From Escherichia coli phage KS_S14, in the sequence record LC788706.1: a stretch of 64,000 bases of DNA. One strand, written 5' to 3'. Below are positions 412-34,567 of the stretch, piece by piece (position 1 is the first letter of the stretch; every line of letters starts with the position of its first letter). The position numbers and the translations under genes were made by a program. Under the pieces are notes generated by a model, which was given only the letters and a program-made list of their open reading frames with translations, had not been told where the DNA came from and searched no databases.

Positions 412-473
412 ATGGCTTAGGCGAAGGATTGCAAATCCTTTTTATGTGAGTTCAAATCTCATGCGGTCGTCCA
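398..473 (+). tRNA. tRNA-Cys (anticodon GCA)
   Basis: Hand fold: 7-bp acceptor cgaccgt/gcggtcg, anticodon stem aagga/tcctt with loop ttGCAaa, T-arm gtgag-ttcaaat-ctcat, encoded CCA. Confidence 0.65.
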
Positions 474-5800: not shown

Positions 5801-6022
5801 ATGCACGTTTTTGAGTTTCGTAATAAGAGTACTGATAAGCGAGTTATCATTATTGGAGAAACATATCGAGCATATGAACAAACTGACGGCTCTGTTATCT
5901 TGAATGATGAGAAAGGAGGTTTTAGCTTTTATCCAGAAGAAACGTATGAAGAATTTCGTACTAAGTTTCTTTTACCAGACTGGCTAGCAGTAGCCGAGCA
6001 ACGAGAATCCGAAGATGGCTGA
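5801..6022 (+). CDS. hypothetical protein
   Basis: 73 aa ORF with AAGGAAA RBS. Confidence 0.5.
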   Translation: MHVFEFRNKSTDKRVIIIGETYRAYEQTDGSVILNDEKGGFSFYPEETYEEFRTKFLLPDWLAVAEQRESEDG

Positions 6023-6179
6023 TAACCTAAAATTAAAGGTTGACAAACAAAAGAAATACGTTGAGATTGAATTAGGCGAAGAACGCTTAAAGCTAACTTT
6101 CGAGTTTCTTCAGCAGTTGGCAATGACAGTAATGTCAGATAAATCCCCTGTATTTGAAAAAGAAATTCCGTTGAAATAA
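6015..6179 (+). CDS. small hypothetical protein (54 aa)
   Basis: ATG overlaps stop of upstream gene; below ORF-track cutoff. Confidence 0.35.
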   Translation: MADNLKLKVDKQKKYVEIELGEERLKLTFEFLQQLAMTVMSDKSPVFEKEIPLK

Positions 6180-7168: not shown

Positions 7169-7537
7169 ATGAAAGCATATCAAAATCTTAAATCTGGCGT
7201 AATTAACCTTGTTCATGAAAATCAGATTATTCAGCTATATTCCGACAACGGTGAACTTAAACAGAAAGTTCTAGTTGAAGATCTAGAAGGTATCACACCA
7301 CAATTCGATCCTGAAGCCTTCCGTGAAGTTAAGGTGGAAGTCGCCCCTCAAATCGAAGGTGGTCAGCACCTAAATGTCAATGTGTTAAGCCGTGATCAGC
7401 TTTTGGATGCGCAGAAACATCCTGAAAAATACCCTCAATTAACTATCCGTGTTTCAGGGTACGCTGTGCGTTTTAACGCACTGACGCGTGAACAGCAGAA
7501 CGACGTTATTAGTCGTACATTTACTCAGGCGATGTAA
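7169..7537 (+). CDS. grcA: autonomous glycyl-radical cofactor (GrcA/YfiD-like) protein
   Basis: 122 aa; C-terminus [10 protein letters not shown]...[23 protein letters not shown] matches the glycyl-radical signature RVSGYAV of GrcA. Confidence 0.7.
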
Positions 7538-9052: not shown

Positions 9053-9440
9053 TTTAGACCCTAGAATTAAATTTGCAATTACAGAAATCCAAGATCAAAT
9101 TGATGAGGACTTCACTGTTTGGTCAAGGTCTGGTAATGGAGAATATTGCCAGCTTTATAGCATGAAAATGGGTATCTCAATTGAGCTTAATATCAACTCT
9201 GAAGGTAGAGTAGAAGCCCAACCTATGTTTAGTATTCCAGGCTTCTCTGGATTTGTTGCAGGTATGAAATTGTGTCTACCAAATAACCATCTTCATCGAG
9301 TTATTTGTCAACTAGAGACTATTAAACACTTCTTACCAGAAGATAACATTAATGACCACTACCATGAAGTAGTAGCAGCTCATATGATGAAAGAATGCAA
9401 ACGTCGGAGAGAAGAACGTGAAAAAGCTAAACATCAATAG
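9045..9440 (+). CDS. hypothetical protein
   Basis: In-frame ATG with GAAGGTGAAG RBS inside ORF-track entry 9021..9440. Confidence 0.45.
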   Translation: MNNLDPRIKFAITEIQDQIDEDFTVWSRSGNGEYCQLYSMKMGISIELNINSEGRVEAQPMFSIPGFSGFVAGMKLCLPNNHLHRVICQLETIKHFLPEDNINDHYHEVVAAHMMKECKRRREEREKAKHQ

Positions 9441-9714
9441 CACAGTGCAGATTCCAGCAACTAAGGATATTTTAACATTCCTACGTAGTGAAAACACTCA
9501 GTTTTGGCACGACTATATTCAGGAAAATAAAAATAATCCAGATATAGTGGCTTTTGCCAAAACCCGTATTGGGGAATACAAAGATCCAGAAATTAAAGAT
9601 GGCATGATTACTATGCAGTTATGGATAGCTATGAAAACATTTGGACCTACTATGAGTTTAGGATTTGCCCCTCTGTTTACTGATATTCTAATTAAGGAAA
9701 AGGATCTGAAATGA
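9418..9714 (+). CDS. hypothetical protein
   Basis: 98 aa ORF, overlapping-start arrangement. Confidence 0.4.
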   Translation: MKKLNINSTVQIPATKDILTFLRSENTQFWHDYIQENKNNPDIVAFAKTRIGEYKDPEIKDGMITMQLWIAMKTFGPTMSLGFAPLFTDILIKEKDLK

Positions 9715-9995: not shown

Positions 9996-10105
9996 AGAAC
10001 TCGCGTAGGACCGAGTTGCGTCACCTGCAACTGTTACGGATAAGGGGCACGACTCCCTTAGTGCGGTAAGTGGTGAGGTGGCTGCTAGCCCTAACTGGAG
10101 ATAAT

Positions 10106-10450
10106 ATGACTATATTACTAATTCTTGTTACAACTTGGTTTTTAATTGGTGCTGGGTATGCAGTAGCTGTACTTAGACATTTGGACGAATATTCTGCTGA
10201 ATGGTTCATCAAATACCTTCGTATCGACAACAAGGAACATGAATTTAAAGATGAAAAGCAGAAAAAGGCAGTAGAGAAAATGACAGCCAAAGAATGTTTA
10301 TTCTACATGCGTATTATAGGATTCTTTGGGTTATTAATTGCTGGCCCAATTGGTTCTACTATTGCTCCGTACAAAGAAACAGTTGCCGACATCAAATTAT
10401 GGAGAAATGCAGGGGTACTACGCAAAGCTAGAGAAACTAATATTACATAA
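10106..10450 (+). CDS. membrane protein
   Basis: ATG with GGAG RBS; hydrophobic helices. Confidence 0.45.
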   Translation: MTILLILVTTWFLIGAGYAVAVLRHLDEYSAEWFIKYLRIDNKEHEFKDEKQKKAVEKMTAKECLFYMRIIGFFGLLIAGPIGSTIAPYKETVADIKLWRNAGVLRKARETNIT

Positions 10451-23813: not shown

Positions 23814-24175
23814 ATCTCATAGATTAAAAACATCAACTTGTTTTTACCTCTAGGCCGTAGATTTACATCATTCCTCGTAGGAAAACACTTGATGACGGTT
23901 CTGTTCGCAGGTTCTCGTCAATTGTTCTTCCACACCGAGACTTAGGAGGATGTATCAAATCGCACGCGCCTAGAGGGGCTAACTCTCATGAAATGGGGGT
24001 ATATTAACTTTTAAATAACTGATAAATATTTAAAGGCAATATCTGTGTTCAAGATGATACACTTGTTGCCGCCCATCTGCTAGGATGGCACAACACTTTC
24101 TTCTAGACTCCTAAGTTTTTATGAAAACTCTAGTCAACTCAGGTGGTTTTCATGTTCCTAGAAACTTCAGCAATA

Positions 24176-24213
24176 GGCGGTTTAATACAGGGCGGTTATG
24201 GGGAGGGCGGTTA
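24176..24213. repeat. three direct copies of GGCGGTT(A/T)
   Basis: aggcggttt, gggcggtta, gggcggtta within 38 bp. Confidence 0.5.
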
Positions 24214-24256
24214 TTTCTAGGAGACATTTTTTGAAAACACATTTCCAGAAATTACT

Positions 24257-24856
24257 GTCGGATTTGCACACTGACATAGGTTTAAAAACTGGTCGGATTT
24301 GCACAATCGCCTAAGTTTTTAGGAACTCTTACTCTCCTGAAAATAGCAGCATTATTTCGGGCCGAAGGCCCGTGATTGCCTGAGTTTTTAGGGCCACAGA
24401 AATTTTCACTTGTCAAGCTATTTTGCCCCATTTTGCTAATAAAATTTTACTTTATCTGCACTTACCTCAAATTAACCCAAATCTTCTCAACTCTTCCCCA
24501 AAATCCCCGCAAATCAGGTGCTCCGCACCAAACATGCGCCCCTCTCGCAGTTCCCCCAAGTTTCTCTCGATCTCTCAACTTCTCCCCAAACCCATACAAT
24601 CACACACCATCTAATCGAAGTCACAAAAATCTTGTCGGATTCGCACAAATAAACCCATGTCGGATTTGCACATATTCTAGCTAATTCCACAGGATTCGAA
24701 CGCAGTTCGTGATTGCTGGAGTTTTTAGGAAAATTCATTGTCGGATTTGCACACTATAAAAATTTTTCGGGTCGGATTTGCACACTACCAAAAATTGTCG
24801 GATTCGCACATACACGCCCACGCGTAATCCATGGGGGCAAATGTCGGATTTGCACA
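24257..24856 (+). repeat. iteron-like array: 8 direct copies of GTCGGATT(T/C)GCACA
   Basis: Copies at 24257, 24292, 24634, 24659, 24740, 24771, 24797, 24843, same orientation, irregular spacing; several flanked by AGTTTTTAG motifs. Confidence 0.7.
24470..24600 (+). repeat. C-rich, G-poor strand-asymmetric tract
   Basis: About 130 bp with almost no G on the + strand. Confidence 0.45.
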
Positions 24857-24884
24857 AAAGCGCAGGGCAATTGCCCTGCTCGCC

Positions 24885-25070
24885 TGAATGCGAATGATAA
24901 TGAGAATAATTATCATTTAAGAAGTGGAATGCAAATGATAATTATTCTCATTTACGAAAGGGGGGTGAGAACTATTCAGGAAGTGAAACGATTCTCATTT
25001 AAAAAGTGAAATGATTATCGGTTAGACAGTGGAATGCGAATGATAATGATTCTCATTTAAGAATGGAAGT
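24885..25070. repeat. cluster of about 60-bp direct repeats each containing AATGAGAAT/ATTCTCATT palindromes
   Basis: ggaatgc(g/a)aatgataat three times; attctcattta four times; long AT-rich inverted repeats. Confidence 0.6.
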
Positions 25071-25090
25071 GAGAAACACTGTTATTTAAG

Positions 25091-25172
25091 TTATCAACAG
25101 ACTTATCAACAGCACGATTTGACTTGACAGAATCCTAGCCATTTTGAGGCGTTATTAACAGACTTATCCACA
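25091..25172 (+). promoter_or_regulatory. DnaA-box cluster
   Basis: TTATCAACA at 25091 and 25104; TTATCCACA at 25164. Confidence 0.5.
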
Positions 25173-25182
25173 GCTTATCCTA

Positions 25183-25198
25183 CTGTATATTTATACAG
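25183..25198. promoter_or_regulatory. SOS-box-like palindrome CTGTATATTTATACAG (left copy of inverted repeat)
   Basis: tactgtatatttatacagta resembles LexA consensus CTGT-N8-ACAG; partner at 28927. Confidence 0.4.
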
Positions 25199-25393
25199 TA
25201 TTCCTATGTAGTGAATAATTCTAATATAGGCCTAAAACGTCCTGAATCGCATTCTAACGCGTTTAATTTTGGTGGGGATACTAAAACAAGGGCAAAATTG
25301 GAGGAGGCTTGAAAATTAGTTAGCACGCTAACGATCACACAAGGCGACACGTAACACCCTAATCATTAGCAGGCTAACCATCGCGGGCGCGGT

Positions 25394-25416
25394 CAAATGA
25401 GAATGATTCTCATTTG
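25394..25416. repeat. 23-bp perfect palindrome CAAATGAGAATGATTCTCATTTG
   Basis: Perfect dyad; same core as the 24885-25070 repeats. Confidence 0.55.
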
Positions 25417-25566
25417 AAAATTGGGGGCACTCCCTGATAGTTGCGCCCCTTGATTATTATAGTAGTGGGCAACCGTTACGCTTTGCCCACTCCCCCCACT
25501 CATCTTGATGCCTAGACTTGCGACGGCGTACTAAAAACCGTTTATACCAGTGATTAAACCATCGTT

Positions 25567-25770
25567 TCATAAATCCTCCTCCGGTAGTCGGTGCGTGATC
25601 TTTTCCTCCTCTCCGTAGGAATCGACCAAATGTTGGTAGTAACCATCGTGATCATAAATCACTTTATCATACTCGCCACGCTCGACCGCTTGCCGGTTTT
25701 CCGGCGTATCGGGCACGTAAAAAACATCAACCATTGTACTAATTTTGGTTACAACAATTTTATTGCTCAT
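25567..25770 (-). CDS. hypothetical protein
   Basis: Start moved to second ATG with AGGGG RBS; last gene of minus-strand block. Confidence 0.4.
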   Translation of the reverse strand: MSNKIVVTKISTMVDVFYVPDTPENRQAVERGEYDKVIYDHDGYYQHLVDSYGEEEKITHRLPEEDL

Positions 25771-25870
25771 AATAACCCCTAGTAAATATATTTTTGCCAA
25801 TAGTGGCAAACGTTATCGCCACCAGCGGAATCATTTGCAGCCTCAACATTACCAGCGAAAATATATAATC

Positions 25871-26215
25871 TCATTGCGCCACCTTTCGAAACGCTGTTTC
25901 AATACTATCCGCAGTGGATTGAATATACGCTCCTTTCATTATCAGGCGCTCGGTACATACCTTACGGAAGATATTAATAAAATCATCTTCATTTTCTGCA
26001 ATTAATGCTTCACCCATAACCTGAACGTCGCAAGATGCAAAGGTCAAAAATTGAAACGCTAGTTCACGGGCAACGACCGCATTGATTTTATAATGCGCCT
26101 TGCCCTCATAAATATTAACAACGCCCTTGTAAGCTGGGGAAAGCTGATTTAAGTAATTTGCTAACAATGCAGGACGGCAATTAGCAACAAAACGATTGCC
26201 CTCATAAATAACCAT
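25871..26215 (-). CDS. hypothetical protein
   Basis: 114 aa ORF in minus-strand operon. Confidence 0.45.
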   Translation of the reverse strand: MVIYEGNRFVANCRPALLANYLNQLSPAYKGVVNIYEGKAHYKINAVVARELAFQFLTFASCDVQVMGEALIAENEDDFINIFRKVCTERLIMKGAYIQSTADSIETAFRKVAQ

Positions 26216-26338
26216 TTGACAGCCTCCCGATTAGATAGCCAGATAAAAGCATAAAAATCCCCAATGAAATGGGGTCATTTTTAAATAAGGTGGCGGTAAA
26301 ACCGCCAACCATTGCAAGGATAATAATGGTAACGCTTT

Positions 26339-26551
26339 TCATAGTACCCCACGAAACGCAGCGTAAAAGGTGGCAAAGTATTTAACCGTTTCAGCGATCA
26401 CGTTGCCGCGCTTATCAAATTTTTTCTCAGTAACACGAAAGGCATTTTTGTTACGTGCTACATATTCGATTTTACAATCTTCACGCTCGAACGTGTTAAC
26501 ATCCACCAGCTTAAAGCCTTTCGAACGTGCAAGGGAAACGTTACGAATCAT
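26339..26551 (-). CDS. hypothetical protein
   Basis: 70 aa ORF. Confidence 0.4.
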   Translation of the reverse strand: MIRNVSLARSKGFKLVDVNTFEREDCKIEYVARNKNAFRVTEKKFDKRGNVIAETVKYFATFYAAFRGVL

Positions 26552-26752
26552 TTTTATTCTCCTTTACCAGTCATGCAGCCCAGCAGATAAGAAAAAACGG
26601 CAATGCCAGCGCCGATAATAACAGCGTGAACGCCGAAAGCTATTGCAAATAACGATAAGATAGCGCCCAAGATACCCGCCAGAATAGCTCGAAAAATAAC
26701 CATTTGTAATACTCCCCTAGTTATCGGGGGATATAATATCCCCCGTTATTAA

Positions 26753-27016
26753 TTACATTAAAACAATTTTTGCAGCTTGTTTTTTGGTGCAATGTTCCGC
26801 CTTCAGGGTATCCAGCAAAAAGCCAGCCGTTTGCTGATCGATTTTATCGGCGTTATACAATTCTTGGATGGTGTTATAAGTTTTAGCAATGCCGTATTCT
26901 TGCACCATTTCGTGAATAATAACGCGGTTAGATACCCAGCCTTGAGCGGTGAACAGATGACTAGCAGAAGAATAAGCAACCATTTTAAGCCTCCAAATTT
27001 TTGGGAAAATTTTCAA
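26753..27016 (-). CDS. hypothetical protein
   Basis: 87 aa ORF. Confidence 0.4.
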   Translation of the reverse strand: MKIFPKIWRLKMVAYSSASHLFTAQGWVSNRVIIHEMVQEYGIAKTYNTIQELYNADKIDQQTAGFLLDTLKAEHCTKKQAAKIVLM

Positions 27017-27089
27017 CCGTCCTTAAACGGTGTAAAGGCATTATAACAAAAAAGGCCACCAATTATGGCGACCTTTACAAAACTTTACA

Positions 27090-27584
27090 TTAAACTACTT
27101 GTAATGTTTCAATATTGAAACATCGTTTCAATTCGTCATGCAAAACAGCATATTCCTCCCATCGGGTACTATCAGGAATATAAACAAGCTGTTTTAATCG
27201 GTTTGCATATATTACCGCTTTGTTATCGACTATCTCGACGCCACCATATTTAATAATTAATTTCATGACGGAATTAATAGGATCACCGCCGTTTACATAT
27301 GTGCCGGATTTACTTAGTTGATAATGATAAAGGCTTGCATATACGTTTTCATTCTCATACCATTCACCAGTTTCTTCGTCTTCGTAACCATCGCTACCAA
27401 AACGAGAAGCATTATCAATAGCCATTTCATGAGCGAAAGCGTCCAGATCCGTACCAGCAGGAACAAAATATTCCTCGGTGTTCCCTTCCCCGCAATAGCC
27501 AGTATGACAATCAACTAAAATGATCATATCATGTTTAGCCGTGCTCACTTCCCCTAGTGAGAAGCCGTATTTTTCTTCAGCCAT
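27090..27584 (-). CDS. hypothetical acidic protein
   Basis: 164 aa ORF with GGAGG RBS. Confidence 0.5.
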   Translation of the reverse strand: MAEEKYGFSLGEVSTAKHDMIILVDCHTGYCGEGNTEEYFVPAGTDLDAFAHEMAIDNASRFGSDGYEDEETGEWYENENVYASLYHYQLSKSGTYVNGGDPINSVMKLIIKYGGVEIVDNKAVIYANRLKQLVYIPDSTRWEEYAVLHDELKRCFNIETLQVV

Positions 27585-27649
27585 TAGTTAGCCTCCTATT
27601 AGTTAACAAGGGAATAGTAAAGTGGGGAAACAATCCCCACTAAATATTA

Positions 27650-28660
27650 TTACTCGCTTTCGATGTTAGTGGTGAAAGTAGAAATATCGATACCTTTTAC
27701 CATTTCATCAATCATTTCAGCGATGTTAAAACTTTGCACCATTTCCAGCATTGCCGCTTCCATAGCTGCGCCTGCTACCGCTTTCGCTTTCTGGTTATTC
27801 GGGGCGTACTGGTCAACCGCTACGCTCAGCAGGTTAGCAATAACTACCCGACCAATCGGCGTATCAATATAACCTTTGATCATGAATGGTGCTTTTTTAG
27901 CCGCTACTTTCGTAATTTGAGTTAATGCAATTTTGCCAGCTTCCAGTTTTGCAGCATTTACAACAGCGGATTTATTAGCGGCAACGATATTAGCGATCTT
28001 GGTCATGGTATTATTTCCTTTGTTTTCAGTAGTTTGAGTGTTAACGCTTTGAGTGTTAGAATTTACAGCATGTTTTTCCGTGTTGTCAATAGGCTGATCT
28101 TCCTCCTTCCAGAAAGAAAAGCCCGCGCTTTCAATATCCCCATCATATACATAAGGGTACACTTCCGACGGTAACAAAAAATTACCATCGCCATCAAAAG
28201 CCATTATAGCGGTATATTGAGACCCGTCGTTATCCGGCTTATGCCATCCAGCAGGTAAATACTTCCAGATAACATCTAAAAATCCCTCAATGCTAGAAAG
28301 TCCATTTATCAGATCAAGTCCAATAAGCTCAAAACCATTTATATTAAATGATTGACGGCCTGAATTGCTATGATATGCAACAATATTATTGCCCTGCGCA
28401 ATAATAAAATCGGCATCCGGCCCCGCTCCCCTACCTGTAAAGATATGGCAATCACGGTTATATAAAACAAGCGTTGCCCCTTGCTTATATAGTGGTAGAA
28501 AACTATCTATATCATAAGCGTCATAATCATCAAAAAAGTTTTGATGAATAGTTTCAGCCTTGTTAATAAAATGTTTAATGCTGGTTGACTTGCTACCATC
28601 CAGCAGGTTGCGCAATGCACCTTTTAAGACGGTTGCGTTATCTGGTTTATACAGCCTCAT
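27650..28660 (-). CDS. hypothetical protein (first gene of minus-strand block)
   Basis: 336 aa ORF with GAGGAGG RBS; Ala/Lys-rich C-terminal helical region. Confidence 0.55.
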   Translation of the reverse strand: MRLYKPDNATVLKGALRNLLDGSKSTSIKHFINKAETIHQNFFDDYDAYDIDSFLPLYKQGATLVLYNRDCHIFTGRGAGPDADFIIAQGNNIVAYHSNSGRQSFNINGFELIGLDLINGLSSIEGFLDVIWKYLPAGWHKPDNDGSQYTAIMAFDGDGNFLLPSEVYPYVYDGDIESAGFSFWKEEDQPIDNTEKHAVNSNTQSVNTQTTENKGNNTMTKIANIVAANKSAVVNAAKLEAGKIALTQITKVAAKKAPFMIKGYIDTPIGRVVIANLLSVAVDQYAPNNQKAKAVAGAAMEAAMLEMVQSFNIAEMIDEMVKGIDISTFTTNIESE

Positions 28661-28926
28661 TTGTTCGGCCTCCTCGTTAATCGGTGAGTGAATGATAAAG
28701 GTAATTTTCTAGCATAGGCAAATATTATTTTACCTTTTTATTTTCCTTGCCTAGCGTCTAATTTTATGCTAACCGCGCAGCGGTGTAATAAAGAGCAAAA
28801 CACGGCGAAGCCACCAGGCCGCAGCATTGAGGCTTTACTTTACTATTACCTTGCAGCGTTTAGCTCGTTAGAATGCGATTTAGGCCGCTTAAAATTGATT
28901 GCAGTTGTTAACACTACCTTTTTACC

Positions 28927-28966
28927 CTGTATATTTATACAGTGGAATAACCTGTGGATAAGTCTG
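28927..28966. repeat. right copy of about 40-bp inverted repeat with SOS-box-like palindrome and DnaA box
   Basis: Reverse complement of 28927-28966 matches 25159-25198 at about 34 of 40 positions. Confidence 0.55.
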
Positions 28967-29361
28967 TGCAAAAGTCCTTATATCGCCGCCTATCGTGTCA
29001 AGTTATTTCGTGCTGTGGATAACGTTGTGGATAACCTAAATGATAGTGCTTCTCACTTAGCTAGATGATTTCTTATAGTTATTATTTCTCATTAATTTAT
29101 ATGTATATTATATATCATGAAATAGTTAGTTAGCTAATGAGATTTTTCGTGATTAATAGTCTGCTAATAGTTTACTCGGTTACAGTCCACCAGCATGATT
29201 ATCATCCTAGCAATTATTATCCTGCTATCTTTCCGATGCATACTAACAAATAAAAGTCAATTAATTTATTTCATAAAATAAGTAGTTATCCACTGGAAAA
29301 TAAAAGTCAAGTGGATAACTAGGAAAATTTCATTTTTGCTTTTGGGGATAAGTTATCAACA
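28953..29361. promoter_or_regulatory. DnaA-box cluster in divergent control region
   Basis: TGTGGATAA at 28953, 29024, 29036; TTATCCAC at 29286; GTGGATAAC at 29311; TTATCAACA at 29353. Confidence 0.5.
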
Positions 29362-29766
29362 AGGCTAGAATGCACCTAAAACGCCCTAGAACGCGATGAA
29401 AGTTTTAGCCATGCCATTGCATTGCCTACCCTCGTTTATCGCTACCACGAGCTTTTTAGTTTTTGTCAAGTAGGGCAAGGCAAATATAAATGAAAAAATT
29501 ACTTGCCAACCTGCTGGGTTTTATGGTATTCGCGCGCCCGTTTCTTTTAATTTTAGGCCGTCGCCGCACGCCGTCCGGTGAGTTTTTGTCTTTACATTTC
29601 TTTACAAAAATAAGGTTGCGCCATTTTCGGGAATCCCCTATTATTTATCTCGTAGGGCGGCAATGACGAACTACACGGCGGGAAGTTTACCGCCACGCTC
29701 TTTAAAAATTGGGTACATCTTAAAGCCTATCGGCGGTAAACTTATACATTATAAGGAATCGACGAT

Positions 29767-29970
29767 ATGAAACAAACTTTATTGATCACTGGCAAGCCTA
29801 TTAAGGCACTAGATAGCAAAACAAAAAAATTGTTGACAGTAGCGCAAAGATCGGTAAAATACCGATTCACGCAGTACAAGAAAGGCCGCCAGCAAGGTTT
29901 AGAAATGATCTGGCGAAATATTATGATTGACTTGAAAGAAAATCATAAAAAACTGCAAAAAATTGTTTGA
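29767..29970 (+). CDS. hypothetical basic protein
   Basis: 67 aa; first ORF of + strand pre-early-like operon. Confidence 0.4.
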   Translation: MKQTLLITGKPIKALDSKTKKLLTVAQRSVKYRFTQYKKGRQQGLEMIWRNIMIDLKENHKKLQKIV

Positions 29971-30136
29971 CAATCTAGCCGATAGGTTTTAAGATGTACT
30001 CAGTTCGATAAGAGCGATAACTTGATAAAATTTGACGGTCGGTGCTTACCATAATGCATCCCGCCCCCTAACTGGGATATAGCGGCCTACGTGGAGTTCT
30101 TTAAATTGGTTAAACTGGCGAGCGGATTGTTACTTA

Positions 30137-30164
30137 TTACCTGCTAGTATTTTCTAGCAGGTAA
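30137..30164 (+). promoter_or_regulatory. intercistronic palindrome ttacctgctag/ctagcaggtaa
   Basis: 11-bp perfect arms with 6-nt AT loop between genes. Confidence 0.4.
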
Positions 30165-30200
30165 TGCGGAACAATCCCCAAATAACTAGGAGTTTATATT

Positions 30201-30452
30201 ATGCAAAACGTTATTACCGCGCCTAAAATTGGTCAATCCGTCTTTATTCCTTTCGTTACTAAAACGGATGAATTAACCGGAAAAGCCGAACGCATTAAAG
30301 GTGCGGCGCTTATGCCGTTCGATACAATCGACGCGGTATACGCTGAAACGGAACGCAGTAACAACGGCAAACCAGTTTTTAGCGTTCGCGTTAAATCCGG
30401 TGACGTTGTAAAGGTTGTTCAACGCAACGAAAAATGGGAAGCTGTTTTGTAA
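30201..30452 (+). CDS. hypothetical protein
   Basis: 83 aa ORF with AGGAG RBS. Confidence 0.45.
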   Translation: MQNVITAPKIGQSVFIPFVTKTDELTGKAERIKGAALMPFDTIDAVYAETERSNNGKPVFSVRVKSGDVVKVVQRNEKWEAVL

Positions 30453-30553: not shown

Positions 30554-30961
30554 ATGACTAACGCAAAAACCGCAAAATTCGCATGGAATGAAGAAAACAC
30601 TCAGAAAGCTGTTACCATGTATCAGCAGTTAATCAATGAAAACGGTTTAGATTTCGCAAATAGCGACGGTCTGAAAGAGATTGCGAAAGCAGTAGGCGCG
30701 GCCTCCCCCGTGTCAGTTCGCTCAAAATTGACCAGCGCGAAAGCATATCAAAAAAGCGATAAGCCGCGCAAAGTAGGCGGCGGTAGCTCTGTGCGTAAAG
30801 CTCATTATGTACGCGTTATCGCTAAACATGCTATTGATTCCGGCATTATCAAAGACGCCGACGATCTGGCAAGTCTGGAAAGTGCAAAACTTGAAACGCT
30901 GGACGCAGTAGCGCAACTGTTAGGCGTTGCCGATGAAGTAAAACAAGCCGCAGGCGAATAA
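30554..30961 (+). CDS. pre-early protein, possibly A2-like
   Basis: 135 aa; immediately upstream of the A1-like gene; assignment by position and size only. Confidence 0.35.
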   Translation: MTNAKTAKFAWNEENTQKAVTMYQQLINENGLDFANSDGLKEIAKAVGAASPVSVRSKLTSAKAYQKSDKPRKVGGGSSVRKAHYVRVIAKHAIDSGIIKDADDLASLESAKLETLDAVAQLLGVADEVKQAAGE

Positions 30962-33832: not shown

Positions 33833-34567
33833 ATGAATAAAGCTATTATGAATATTTCCCGCAGCTTCCCGCATATTTCCCGCGTCATGATTTGGGATTT
33901 AGACGGCACTATCATTAATTCTTTCCACCGCGTAGCGCCTTGCTTTGATAGCGAGGGCAATTTAGATTTAAATAAGTATAAAAATGAAGCGTGTAAACAT
34001 CATTTAATAATGCAGGATACATTATTACCATTAGTTGAATACATGCGCCAGTGCATGAACGACGCAAATACTTTAAACATTATTTGTACCGCTCGACTAA
34101 TGAGCAAGTCGGACTATTATTATTTGCGTAAACAAGGGTTGCGCGGTCGTGGGGATAGTAATATCCGCGTTTTTTCCCGTGATACACTACACAAATATTT
34201 TGAGGCTGATAAAGTTAGCGAGATATACCACAGTAAGGACGCAGTTTATAAATCTTATTATTTTGAATTATTTAAACAGTTATATCCGAACGCTGATTTT
34301 ACAATGATTGATGATCATAAAGGTGTATTATCAGCGGCGGCATCATACGGATTTAAAACGCTGGACGCGCAAGCCGTTAACGATATTCTATCAATCGGCG
34401 TGGCATTAATAGGTGAAACCTTTATTGATGAATCCCTCGATGATGATAATGATTATCAATTCCTAGCCGACCGTTTAAAATTATGTTGGGAAGGTATGAC
34501 CGAGGAAGAACGCGCAGAATATAGTTGCAGCCCGCAACAATATATTGAGAAATTAAAAGTTGCGTAA
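33833..34567 (+). CDS. dmp: HAD-superfamily 5'-deoxyribonucleotidase (Dmp-like)
   Basis: 244 aa; N-terminal IWDLDGTI (DxDGT HAD motif); size recalled for T5 Dmp. Confidence 0.55.
   Translation: MNKAIMNISRSFPHISRVMIWDLDGTIINSFHRVAPCFDSEGNLDLNKYKNEACKHHLIMQDTLLPLVEYMRQCMNDANTLNIICTARLMSKSDYYYLRKQGLRGRGDSNIRVFSRDTLHKYFEADKVSEIYHSKDAVYKSYYFELFKQLYPNADFTMIDDHKGVLSAAASYGFKTLDAQAVNDILSIGVALIGETFIDESLDDDNDYQFLADRLKLCWEGMTEEERAEYSCSPQQYIEKLKVA

Follow-up and report, generated by a model that had tools for sequence, protein, structure and literature searches.

How bacteriophage T5 halts transfer of its DNA into the host cell at 8% of the genome and then resumes it has been a question since the 1960s; genetics has yet to define the cis-acting stop signal. 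The stop takes place in the absence of phage protein synthesis (Lanni), and resumption depends on A1 and A2, a dependence restated in a 2026 preprint on the pre-early genes (10.64898/2026.04.02.716235). Here we analyse a pair of inverted repeats in the corresponding part of Escherichia coli phage KS_S14 (sequence record LC788706.1), within a stretch of 64,000 nucleotides referred to as the window. The original prediction for this DNA placed inverted repeats of about 40 bp, with an SOS-box-like core, at 25159-25198 and 28927-28966 on either side of a minus-strand gene block.

The closest described elements are the 131-bp repeats of the first-step-transfer (FST) DNA of T5-like phages, which consist of inverted repeats C and D (IRC-spacer-IRD) and their partners (IRD'-spacer-IRC'), and were described across 25 T5-like phages by Davison (2020, bioRxiv 10.1101/866236). 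They contain eight boxes of the DnaA or DnaA-like type, paired with 3 bp between them, and a constant spacer, and the distance between the two arms is highly variable. Both arms were argued to be part of the injection stop signal, with membrane-bound DnaA holding the DNA, which is a hypothesis even for T5. According to Davison, the DnaA boxes were first reported in 1987, and an older report cited there describes a minor second FST band near the proximal arm.

The inverted repeats and their array of motifs

A megablast search with positions 24500-29500 matched 474 phage records, nearly all of them T5-like phages of Escherichia, Salmonella or Klebsiella, with the top matches 93% identical. In records that begin at the left genome end, the matching segment is on the opposite strand at ~5.2-10.4 kb, within the annotated left terminal repeat. 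By these matches the window is that of a T5-like phage (Tequintavirus) in reverse orientation, with the locus in FST ('pre-early') DNA. The supposition of a strictly lytic phage and of pre-early genes, made with the original prediction, holds.

Alignment with T5 identifies the arms as inverted repeats already published for the left terminal repeat of T5-type phages, and the SOS-box-like core as the annotated T5 palindrome D (Table 1). The T5 coordinates are those of GenBank record AY587007, whose annotation we take to be that of Wang et al. 2005. The 40-nt arms first noticed are the inner parts of the published ~131-bp IRD'-spacer-IRC' and IRC-spacer-IRD repeats. The distal arm lies in 'Repeat Region 3', beside the injection-stop point, and the proximal arm in 'Repeat Region 2'. 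Both are found between A2/hdi and the terminal-repeat end, the position of T5-type FST repeats, and the 7.9% nick/shear point is ~200 bp beyond IRC', the distal arm adjoining the FST end. The structure and its DnaA boxes are already known from T5, and the 1987 paper on the boxes is believed to be that of Heusterspreute et al. The motif calls of the original prediction were correct, the functions it proposed were not borne out in the form given, and it had missed that the structure was already published as T5 IRD/IRD', palindrome D and the injection-stop region.

Comparison of 25159-25198 with the reverse complement of 28927-28966 gave 35 matches in 40 positions, close to the 34 first counted. 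Of the five mismatches, two fall on the palindrome's central dinucleotide, which has the plus-strand sequence CTGTATATTTATACAG in both copies. The arms are larger than claimed, extending ungapped over 147 nt (25067-25213 and 28912-29058, 73% complementary), and are accompanied by a second, inner inverted pair of 32 nt (25235-25266 and 28859-28890, 81% complementary). A gapped alignment of the arms contained 104/135 identities (E = 6e-18), and the longest uninterrupted inverted match was only ~16-17 nt. The spacer is 51 nt in both arms, as in the annotated T5 coordinates; Davison counts 52.

Read as predicted binding sites, each arm is a fixed array of protein-binding motifs and not a plain duplication. 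From outside to inside, the order is a DnaA-box pair, the 51-nt spacer with a TTGACA, three tandem DnaA-like boxes, a near-consensus LexA-like operator that abuts them, and an inner motif. A DnaA box had been claimed in each arm, and the perfect sequence TTATCCACA is present at 25164-25172 (plus strand) and 28953-28961 (minus strand). The window contains five perfect DnaA boxes against 0.65 expected, four of them within the arms. The one-mismatch pair of IRC' was described by Davison. The third DnaA-like 9-mer of IRD' (25175-25183) overlaps the distal LexA-like 20-mer, and the TTTTGCACA box (28973-28965) lies just outside the annotated IRD.

The spacer TTGACA is at 25124-25129 in the distal arm and at 28996-29001 in the proximal arm, where it appears as TGTCAA (TTGACA on the minus strand), and it is invariant in 56/56 aligned arms. 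No -10 element was found 16-18 nt after it. This invariance without a -10 element at that distance suggests that the spacer TTGACA is bound by a protein and does not act as a promoter.

The inner motif, roughly CCTAAAACGyyCTAnAAnCGCATTCTAAGCG, is located immediately inward of each LexA-like box, and part of it forms a direct repeat of CTAAAACGC. In phages My1, Stubb, Roth37 and AG74 (of Pectobacterium, Proteus, Klebsiella and Vibrio), the LexA-like box is followed by related motifs (CTAAAACGC...GCATTCTAAGCG). My1 also has three extra degenerate box copies at 7250, 7454 and 7785 (TACTGTATATTTATACATGC and similar), with one half-site spoiled. The CTAAAACGC motif comes after each of these, a sign that the box module was duplicated locally.

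Quality and conservation of the LexA-like palindrome

LexA-like sites were scored using a position weight matrix derived from 25 E. coli LexA operators, and the scores are approximate. As claimed for the SOS-box-like core, a LexA-grade palindrome was found in each arm. The distal box scored 25.6 bits, above all 25 of these operators (12.9-23.8), and the proximal box 20.9 bits. The next-best position in the window scored 12.3 bits, and the 95th percentile of the maximum over 200 shuffles was 17.6. The distal box, TACTGTATATTTATACAGTA, departs from the canonical TACTG(TA)5CAGTA at a single position. The pattern CTGT-N8-ACAG occurs three times in the 64 kb, compared with 0.66 expected, the third copy (14131) having a GC-rich centre. 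In T5 (1-61 kb), the same two boxes are the only sites above 12.3 bits. By its score, the palindrome is a predicted LexA operator of top quality, with only two such sites in 64 kb.

The exact LexA-like 20-mer occurs in at least 120 other viral contigs, mostly of 5-50 kb. In unrelated viral contigs, it lies 17-64 nt upstream of genes for Peptidase_S24 (UmuD-like), DinI, SRAP and Tum-like (DinI-domain) proteins, which is a textbook LexA-operator context. Many unrelated, non-T5 viral contigs of 5-50 kb (L053, L059, L063, L064, L070 and others) contain the 20-mer ~20 nt upstream of a recurring open reading frame (ORF) of 60-61 aa (MVGEHFSRTQQKWACVQFIAEVSLIANCKP...). This ORF has no Pfam family and may encode an SOS-controlled small phage protein.

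To compare the T5-type loci, 40 IMG/VR loci were recovered through A2. Exact CTGT-N8-ACAG occurred in the 14-20 kb of these loci only as the two boxes. Boxes that seemed to be missing were in fact altered by one base (TTGT or CTGG), the proximal copy being affected more often. Close relatives differ freely in the orientation of the central AA/TT, as symmetric recognition by a dimer would predict. Between the consensuses of the two arm types, identity was 85% for IRC, 57% for the spacer, 83% for IRD, 90% for the LexA box, 38% for the gap and 75% for the inner motif. Each arm type by itself was 83-98% conserved among phages, the value for the distal-arm spacer being 95%. This limitation of inter-arm identity to discrete motifs points to selection on putative binding sites, and not to recent duplication or gene conversion.

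High-scoring sites were also present in five more distant phages. Klebsiella Roth37, Pectobacterium My1 and Proteus Stubb (A1 73%, 66% and 42% identical to T5, respectively) have two each, Vibrio 234P1 (A1 34%) has three, and Vibrio AG74 (A1 31%) has one together with a degenerate copy. These sites score 19-25.6 bits, lie in non-coding FST DNA, and are adjoined by DnaA boxes, except for the Stubb proximal box. All else in the five loci scores at most 13.4 bits, the exception being a site of 17.7 bits in Stubb. Two boxes of 234P1 have their centre altered to TATATCCATA with CTGT and ACAG kept, which is a variation pattern tolerated among genuine LexA sites. Stubb lacks IRC and IRD according to Davison, and nonetheless retains a box (CACTGTATATTTATACAGTA) in a divergent intergenic region. 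The box stays constant while A2 identity drops to 41-42%, which fits a conserved host protein as its reader. All Demerecviridae hosts found are gammaproteobacteria with the same LexA motif.

A link to LexA was then sought in the literature. The terms 'LexA' and 'SOS' have 0 occurrences in Davison 2020, in which the palindrome (PalD) is one of several that are possibly cleavage sites, and the 2026 pre-early-gene preprint (10.64898/2026.04.02.716235) mentions neither. Full-text searches gave no paper that, as judged by title and abstract, links T5, Tequintavirus or T5-like phages with LexA, although older papers could contain an earlier mention, and the titles listed for Demerecviridae together with SOS were all on other topics. 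The LexA-grade nature of palindrome D, conserved family-wide, is apparently unremarked in the literature searched.

The gene block between the arms and its surroundings

Eight minus-strand ORFs lie between the arms, in agreement with the six or more genes first claimed at 25567-28660. They form the right-hand pre-early operon, which is dispensable and variable. In T5 ATCC 11303-B5 (L002, 6417-7426), the region homologous to the 336-aa ORF is annotated as 011 and 012 and aligns as two overlapping pieces, and the T5 counterpart of this gene may be split or frameshifted. T5 itself has nothing matching the 164-aa ORF, homologues of which occur in some other T5-type genomes and, at 35-38% identity, in Klebsiella phages and My1, where they are inverted together with the 336-aa gene. 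T5.015, the counterpart of the 70-aa ORF, is described as a Ung-dependent nickase (PMC8201957).

Synteny in related phages, a comparison proposed with the original prediction, revealed variation in both content and orientation, and not the uniformity that would have counted against the prediction. Among T5-type genomes the box-to-box distance ranges from 1.6 to 3.9 kb, with gain and loss of the 336-aa, 164-aa and smaller genes, and all 38 sampled T5-type loci (~28 genomes) have the block in the same orientation. In the Klebsiella group (L040, L041, L045) and in My1 (L043), the 336-aa and 164-aa homologues lie between the arms in reversed order on the opposite strand; T5-types and Stubb have the other orientation. 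Davison read the Klebsiella/Pectobacterium block as replaced by unrelated ORFs transcribed oppositely. The block called 'replaced' nevertheless keeps homologues of at least two block genes, with order and orientation reversed, and as judged by this homology at least one inversion of the block between the arms has occurred.

The block is driven by the minus-strand promoter P11 (Table 1), a promoter of this name having been seen by primer extension in infected cells (PMC7472727); that it equals T5P4 is inferred from the name. The proximal box lies ~240 bp upstream of P11, and the distal box lies past the 3' end of the operon, the T5 annotation having two terminators between the last block gene and the distal box. 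In most T5-type contigs tested, no ORF starts within 250 nt of a box; one has a 63-aa ORF at 158 nt.

Several other repeats surround the arms. A further inverted pair of DnaA-box-like sequences, TAGTTATCCACTGGA and TCAAGTGGATAACTA, 9 nt apart, lies at 29283-29321, outside the proximal arm on the side of the divergent pre-early promoters. A direct repeat of 14-15 nt, GTCGGATTTGCACA (T5 'direct repeat D'), is present in at least eight copies at 24256-24863, on both sides of the terminal-repeat boundary near 24391. Positions 24886-25066 and 25394-25429 contain a family of nested palindromes and repeats based on AATGAGAATnATTCTCATT, which corresponds to T5 palindromes E-I and T5 direct repeat C. 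The family occupies the interval from the distal arm to the 7.9% nick site, and an additional copy is found within the arm pair (25394-25416). The T5 inverted repeats A/A' correspond to 29710-29734 and 29978-29999, and overlap two strong promoter-like sites at 29833-29860 and 29967-29995 (TTGACA-16-TAAAAT and TTGACA-17-TAAGAT). These sites fall within matches to the annotated T5 pre-early promoters T5P2 and T5P1, and are directed toward hdi, A2 and A1. No tRNA and no Rfam match near the gathering score was found in 24000-30300.

Table 1. Positions of the arms, their motifs and the surrounding features. Positions are those of the window unless T5 or another genome is named.
Feature	Position	Strand	Remarks
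Terminal-repeat end	near 24391		T5 10101-10180 maps to 24429-24350
Left terminal repeat	24.4-34.7 kb		T5 feature mapping
Homologue of T5 major nick-1 site (7.9% of genome)	24848-24875		T5 9653-9680, 100%; marks FST DNA end
IRC', outer part of distal arm	25068-25106		97% identical to T5 IRC' 9424-9462
One-mismatch DnaA boxes TTATCAACA of IRC'	25092-25100 and 25104-25112		second extends 6 nt past annotated repeat
Distal-arm spacer	25107-25157		51 nt
IRD' DnaA-like 9-mers, tandem, same orientation	25152-25160; 25164-25172; 25175-25183		TTATTAACA; TTATCCACA; TTATCCTAC
IRD'	25158-25198		left arm of the original prediction; 95% identical to T5 IRD' 9332-9372
Distal LexA-operator-like palindrome TACTGTATATTTATACAGTA	25181-25200		20/20 identical to T5 palindrome D 9330-9349
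Distal inner conserved motif AAACGTCCTGAATCGCATTCTAACGCGTTTAA	25235-25266		partner of 28859-28890
Variable right-hand pre-early operon	25567-28660	minus	homologous to T5 genes 011-017; eight ORFs
70-aa ORF	26339-26551	minus	homologue of T5 ORF015, Ung-dependent nickase
164-aa ORF	27090-27584	minus	
336-aa DUF7566 protein	27650-28660	minus	matches whole DUF7566 profile
Promoter P11, TTGCCT-18-TATCAT	28721..28692	minus	consensus scan; within stretch 100% identical to annotated T5P4; drives block
Proximal inner conserved motif	28859-28890		partner of 25235-25266
Proximal LexA-operator-like palindrome CCCTGTATATTTATACAGTG	28925-28944		
IRD	28927-28967		right arm of the original prediction; 41/41 identical to T5 IRD 6112-6152
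IRD DnaA-like boxes, tandem	28973-28965; 28961-28953; 28950-28942	minus	TTTTGCACA; TTATCCACA; TTATTCCAC
Proximal-arm spacer	28968-29018		51 nt
Perfect DnaA boxes of IRC	29014-29022 and 29026-29034	minus	first begins 5 nt before annotated repeat
IRC, outer part of proximal arm	29019-29057		94% identical to T5 IRC
A2	30554-30961		ORF 98.5% identical to T5 A2
dmp	33866-34567		mapped from T5
T5 inverted repeat C	T5 6022-6060		GenBank AY587007 annotation
T5 inverted repeat D	T5 6112-6152		GenBank AY587007 annotation
T5 palindrome D	T5 9330-9349		GenBank AY587007 annotation
T5 inverted repeat D'	T5 9332-9372		GenBank AY587007 annotation
T5 inverted repeat C'	T5 9424-9462		GenBank AY587007 annotation
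Inner-motif copies in relatives	L043 ~7270-7300; L044 ~5940-5970; L046 ~432-455		

Proposed host factors at the injection pause and rival explanations

With no phage protein synthesis involved in the FST stop, the signal can be read only by host or virion factors that are already present. We hypothesized that the arms are a cis-element for the host factors DnaA and LexA, linked to the injection pause and not acting as an operator, and we put the chance of this at about even. The arms would be landing pads for DnaA and LexA already present when the DNA enters, and both proteins would load on the FST DNA within seconds. A nucleoprotein complex would form at the boundary of the injected segment, with a weaker complex at the proximal arm, and would keep the injected DNA in place or arrange it while transfer is paused ahead of the A1/A2-dependent second step. 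Because the third DnaA-like 9-mer (25175-25183) overlaps the LexA 20-mer, LexA at the inner end of the DnaA array might cap the array or compete with the third DnaA box, and the complex could thereby be sensitive to the SOS state of the host. As a side effect, the inverted arrangement would have permitted the block to invert at least once in evolution. Support for the link to the pause comes from the distal arm lying ~200 bp inside the 7.9% nick/shear point, and from the minor FST band cited by Davison near the proximal arm.

A bolder version, which we consider possible but rather unlikely, is that host LexA acts with DnaA as a structural part of the injection-pause complex in T5 and all Demerecviridae, with the SOS state tuning the wait. 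The operator would then be kept so that pre-existing LexA clamps the FST DNA, and the SOS state, whether pre-induced or resulting from A1-driven destruction of the host chromosome, would tune the delay before entry of the other 92% of the genome. If true, a strictly virulent phage would here be using LexA architecturally and not for transcriptional control.

Several points weigh against a role of DnaA and LexA in the pause. The matrix behind the LexA scores is, as stated, approximate, and a LexA role at the T5-type boxes is hypothetical. To our knowledge, T5 has not been reported to need recA or LexA cleavage, and any LexA role is therefore probably modulatory. The proximal arm would be dispensable, since a T5 mutant deleted from hegG to 017, which presumably lacks Repeat Region 2 and with it this arm, is viable with smaller plaques, and no proximal box is present in Vibrio AG74. 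Nor would a clamp within the cytoplasm in itself account for the halt of DNA entry. Lastly, the box centre (TATAwwTATA) is more invariant than LexA binding strictly requires, which could reflect selection for maximal affinity, or a different, stricter binder.

Such a binder might be a phage protein, either A2, a DNA-binding pre-early protein that is essential, or A1 as a site-specific nuclease, with the likeness to a LexA box incidental. Besides the invariant centre, this explanation draws on the conservation of A1 and A2 in every box-carrying lineage and on the predicted A2 structure, whose two small helical domains and basic linker would be compatible with DNA binding. It also agrees with the 'restriction-enzyme' model of Davison, in which palindromes such as PalD, explicitly among the candidate cleavage sites, are cut to release the blocked DNA. 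However, the site is identical or nearly so across phages with A2 only 41-42% identical, and phage operator/protein pairs usually drift together. The same 20-mer also lies upstream of classical SOS genes in unrelated elements, so host LexA would bind it regardless, and the injection stop is established not to need new phage proteins. A2 matches no Pfam family and no PDB entry is related to it by sequence, and its confident AlphaFold model (predicted local distance difference test, pLDDT, 86.5) gave no Foldseek match in the PDB below E = 0.79, the LexA N-terminal domain appearing at E = 4-6; nothing ties A2 to the palindrome. We regard a phage reader as unlikely, while giving it some weight.

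The boxes could instead be classical SOS operators, with LexA repressing a promoter that overlaps each box (e.g. TTATCC-17-TATATT in IRD/IRD'), so that SOS would govern either some of the toxic pre-early block or transcripts that are unannotated. The box quality equals or exceeds that of genuine operators, a good -10-like hexamer, TATATT, is present on one strand of each box, and the block genes 011, 013 and 015 are toxic when expressed alone. A promoter-like sequence matching 10/12 consensus positions (TTAACA-16-TATATT, 28908-28935, plus strand) overlaps the proximal box. Its -35 hexamer is, by reading of the sequence, apparently not conserved in T5, and the TATATT flips strand in ~10/30 distal arms of close relatives, which a -10 element would not tolerate; with the sole 10/12 hit apparently unconserved, a promoter at the boxes was rejected as the main explanation. 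Promoter-like hits in the region (23, against 17.5 +/- 4 expected) are not significantly enriched. The boxes neither overlap nor abut P11, P11 being ~240 bp downstream of the proximal box and the distal box past the operon terminators. In unrelated phages the ORF starts 17-64 nt from the box, whereas most T5-type contigs tested have no ORF start within 250 nt. Direct LexA repression of the block is unlikely on account of the box positions, the unconserved 28908-28935 hit and the strand-flipping TATATT. The operator control first suggested for the block found no support in that form, and SOS operators in general seem to us improbable here.

The arms might alternatively be mainly recombination substrates, the boundaries of an invertible or exchangeable cassette of accessory genes. 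The gain and loss of genes between fixed arms (block length 1.6-3.9 kb) and the reversed 336-aa and 164-aa homologues in L040, L041, L045 and L043 would suit such a cassette. As in the Mu G segment, the P1 C segment and Salmonella hin, inverted repeats here surround a multi-gene block, which is found in both orientations among related phages. Unlike those systems, this locus has no site-specific recombinase, its arms are imperfect (73-77% identity) and its orientation is fixed per lineage. No recombinase, invertase or transposase domain was detected by Pfam in or beside the block (only DUF7566 in the block, and DUF7177 on hdi, outside it). We interpret the inversion as rare homologous recombination and not a programmed switch, because no recombinase is encoded and the longest perfect inverted match is ~16-17 nt. 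With 38/38 T5-type loci in one orientation, inversion is a rare evolutionary event. Moreover, inter-arm similarity is confined to protein-binding motifs, and the distal arm persists where the proximal arm is reduced (Stubb, according to Davison, and AG74). An invertible or mobile cassette was rejected as a programmed system because no recombinase is present and orientation is fixed within lineages, and recombination as the main function of the arms has only a slight chance of being right.

An origin-flanking structure had also been proposed. In favour of a DnaA-dependent origin, the box arrays resemble oriC; with oriC and datA, sites of DnaA oligomerisation or titration, they share clustered same-orientation consensus and one-mismatch 9-mers spaced 2-3 bp apart. 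By contrast, no AT-rich repeat resembling an unwinding element was noticed on reading the arms, for which no dedicated search was made, and the array lies here on DNA that enters the cell ahead of any replication genes, at a stage when host DNA and replication machinery are undergoing destruction. The T5 origins were mapped near the middle of the genome according to Davison, and we find an origin function very hard to credit.

The feature as such is already annotated and published for a model phage. What it adds is that palindrome D is LexA-grade and conserved across the family, and that the block was inverted during evolution. If LexA truly binds the family-wide box, a second host factor would be named for the injection pause.

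Compared with the T5 IRC/IRD and IRD'/IRC' repeats, nothing structural distinguishes the KS_S14 arms. They are the same element, with 94-100% sequence identity, the same place in the left terminal repeat, DnaA-box pairs, a 51-nt spacer and genes 011-017 flanked; T5 differs from KS_S14 by an HNH-endonuclease insertion beside the proximal arm, which is absent here and in most relatives. Compared with LexA operators known from gammaproteobacteria and from their mobile elements, such as those upstream of umuD, dinI and coliphage 186 tum, the boxes are of the same class, CTGT-N8-ACAG with an AT-rich centre and TA flanks. They differ from these classical operators in being 'orphans', distant from any promoter or gene start, and in forming an inverted pair around an operon, fused to DnaA-box arrays, on a strictly virulent phage.

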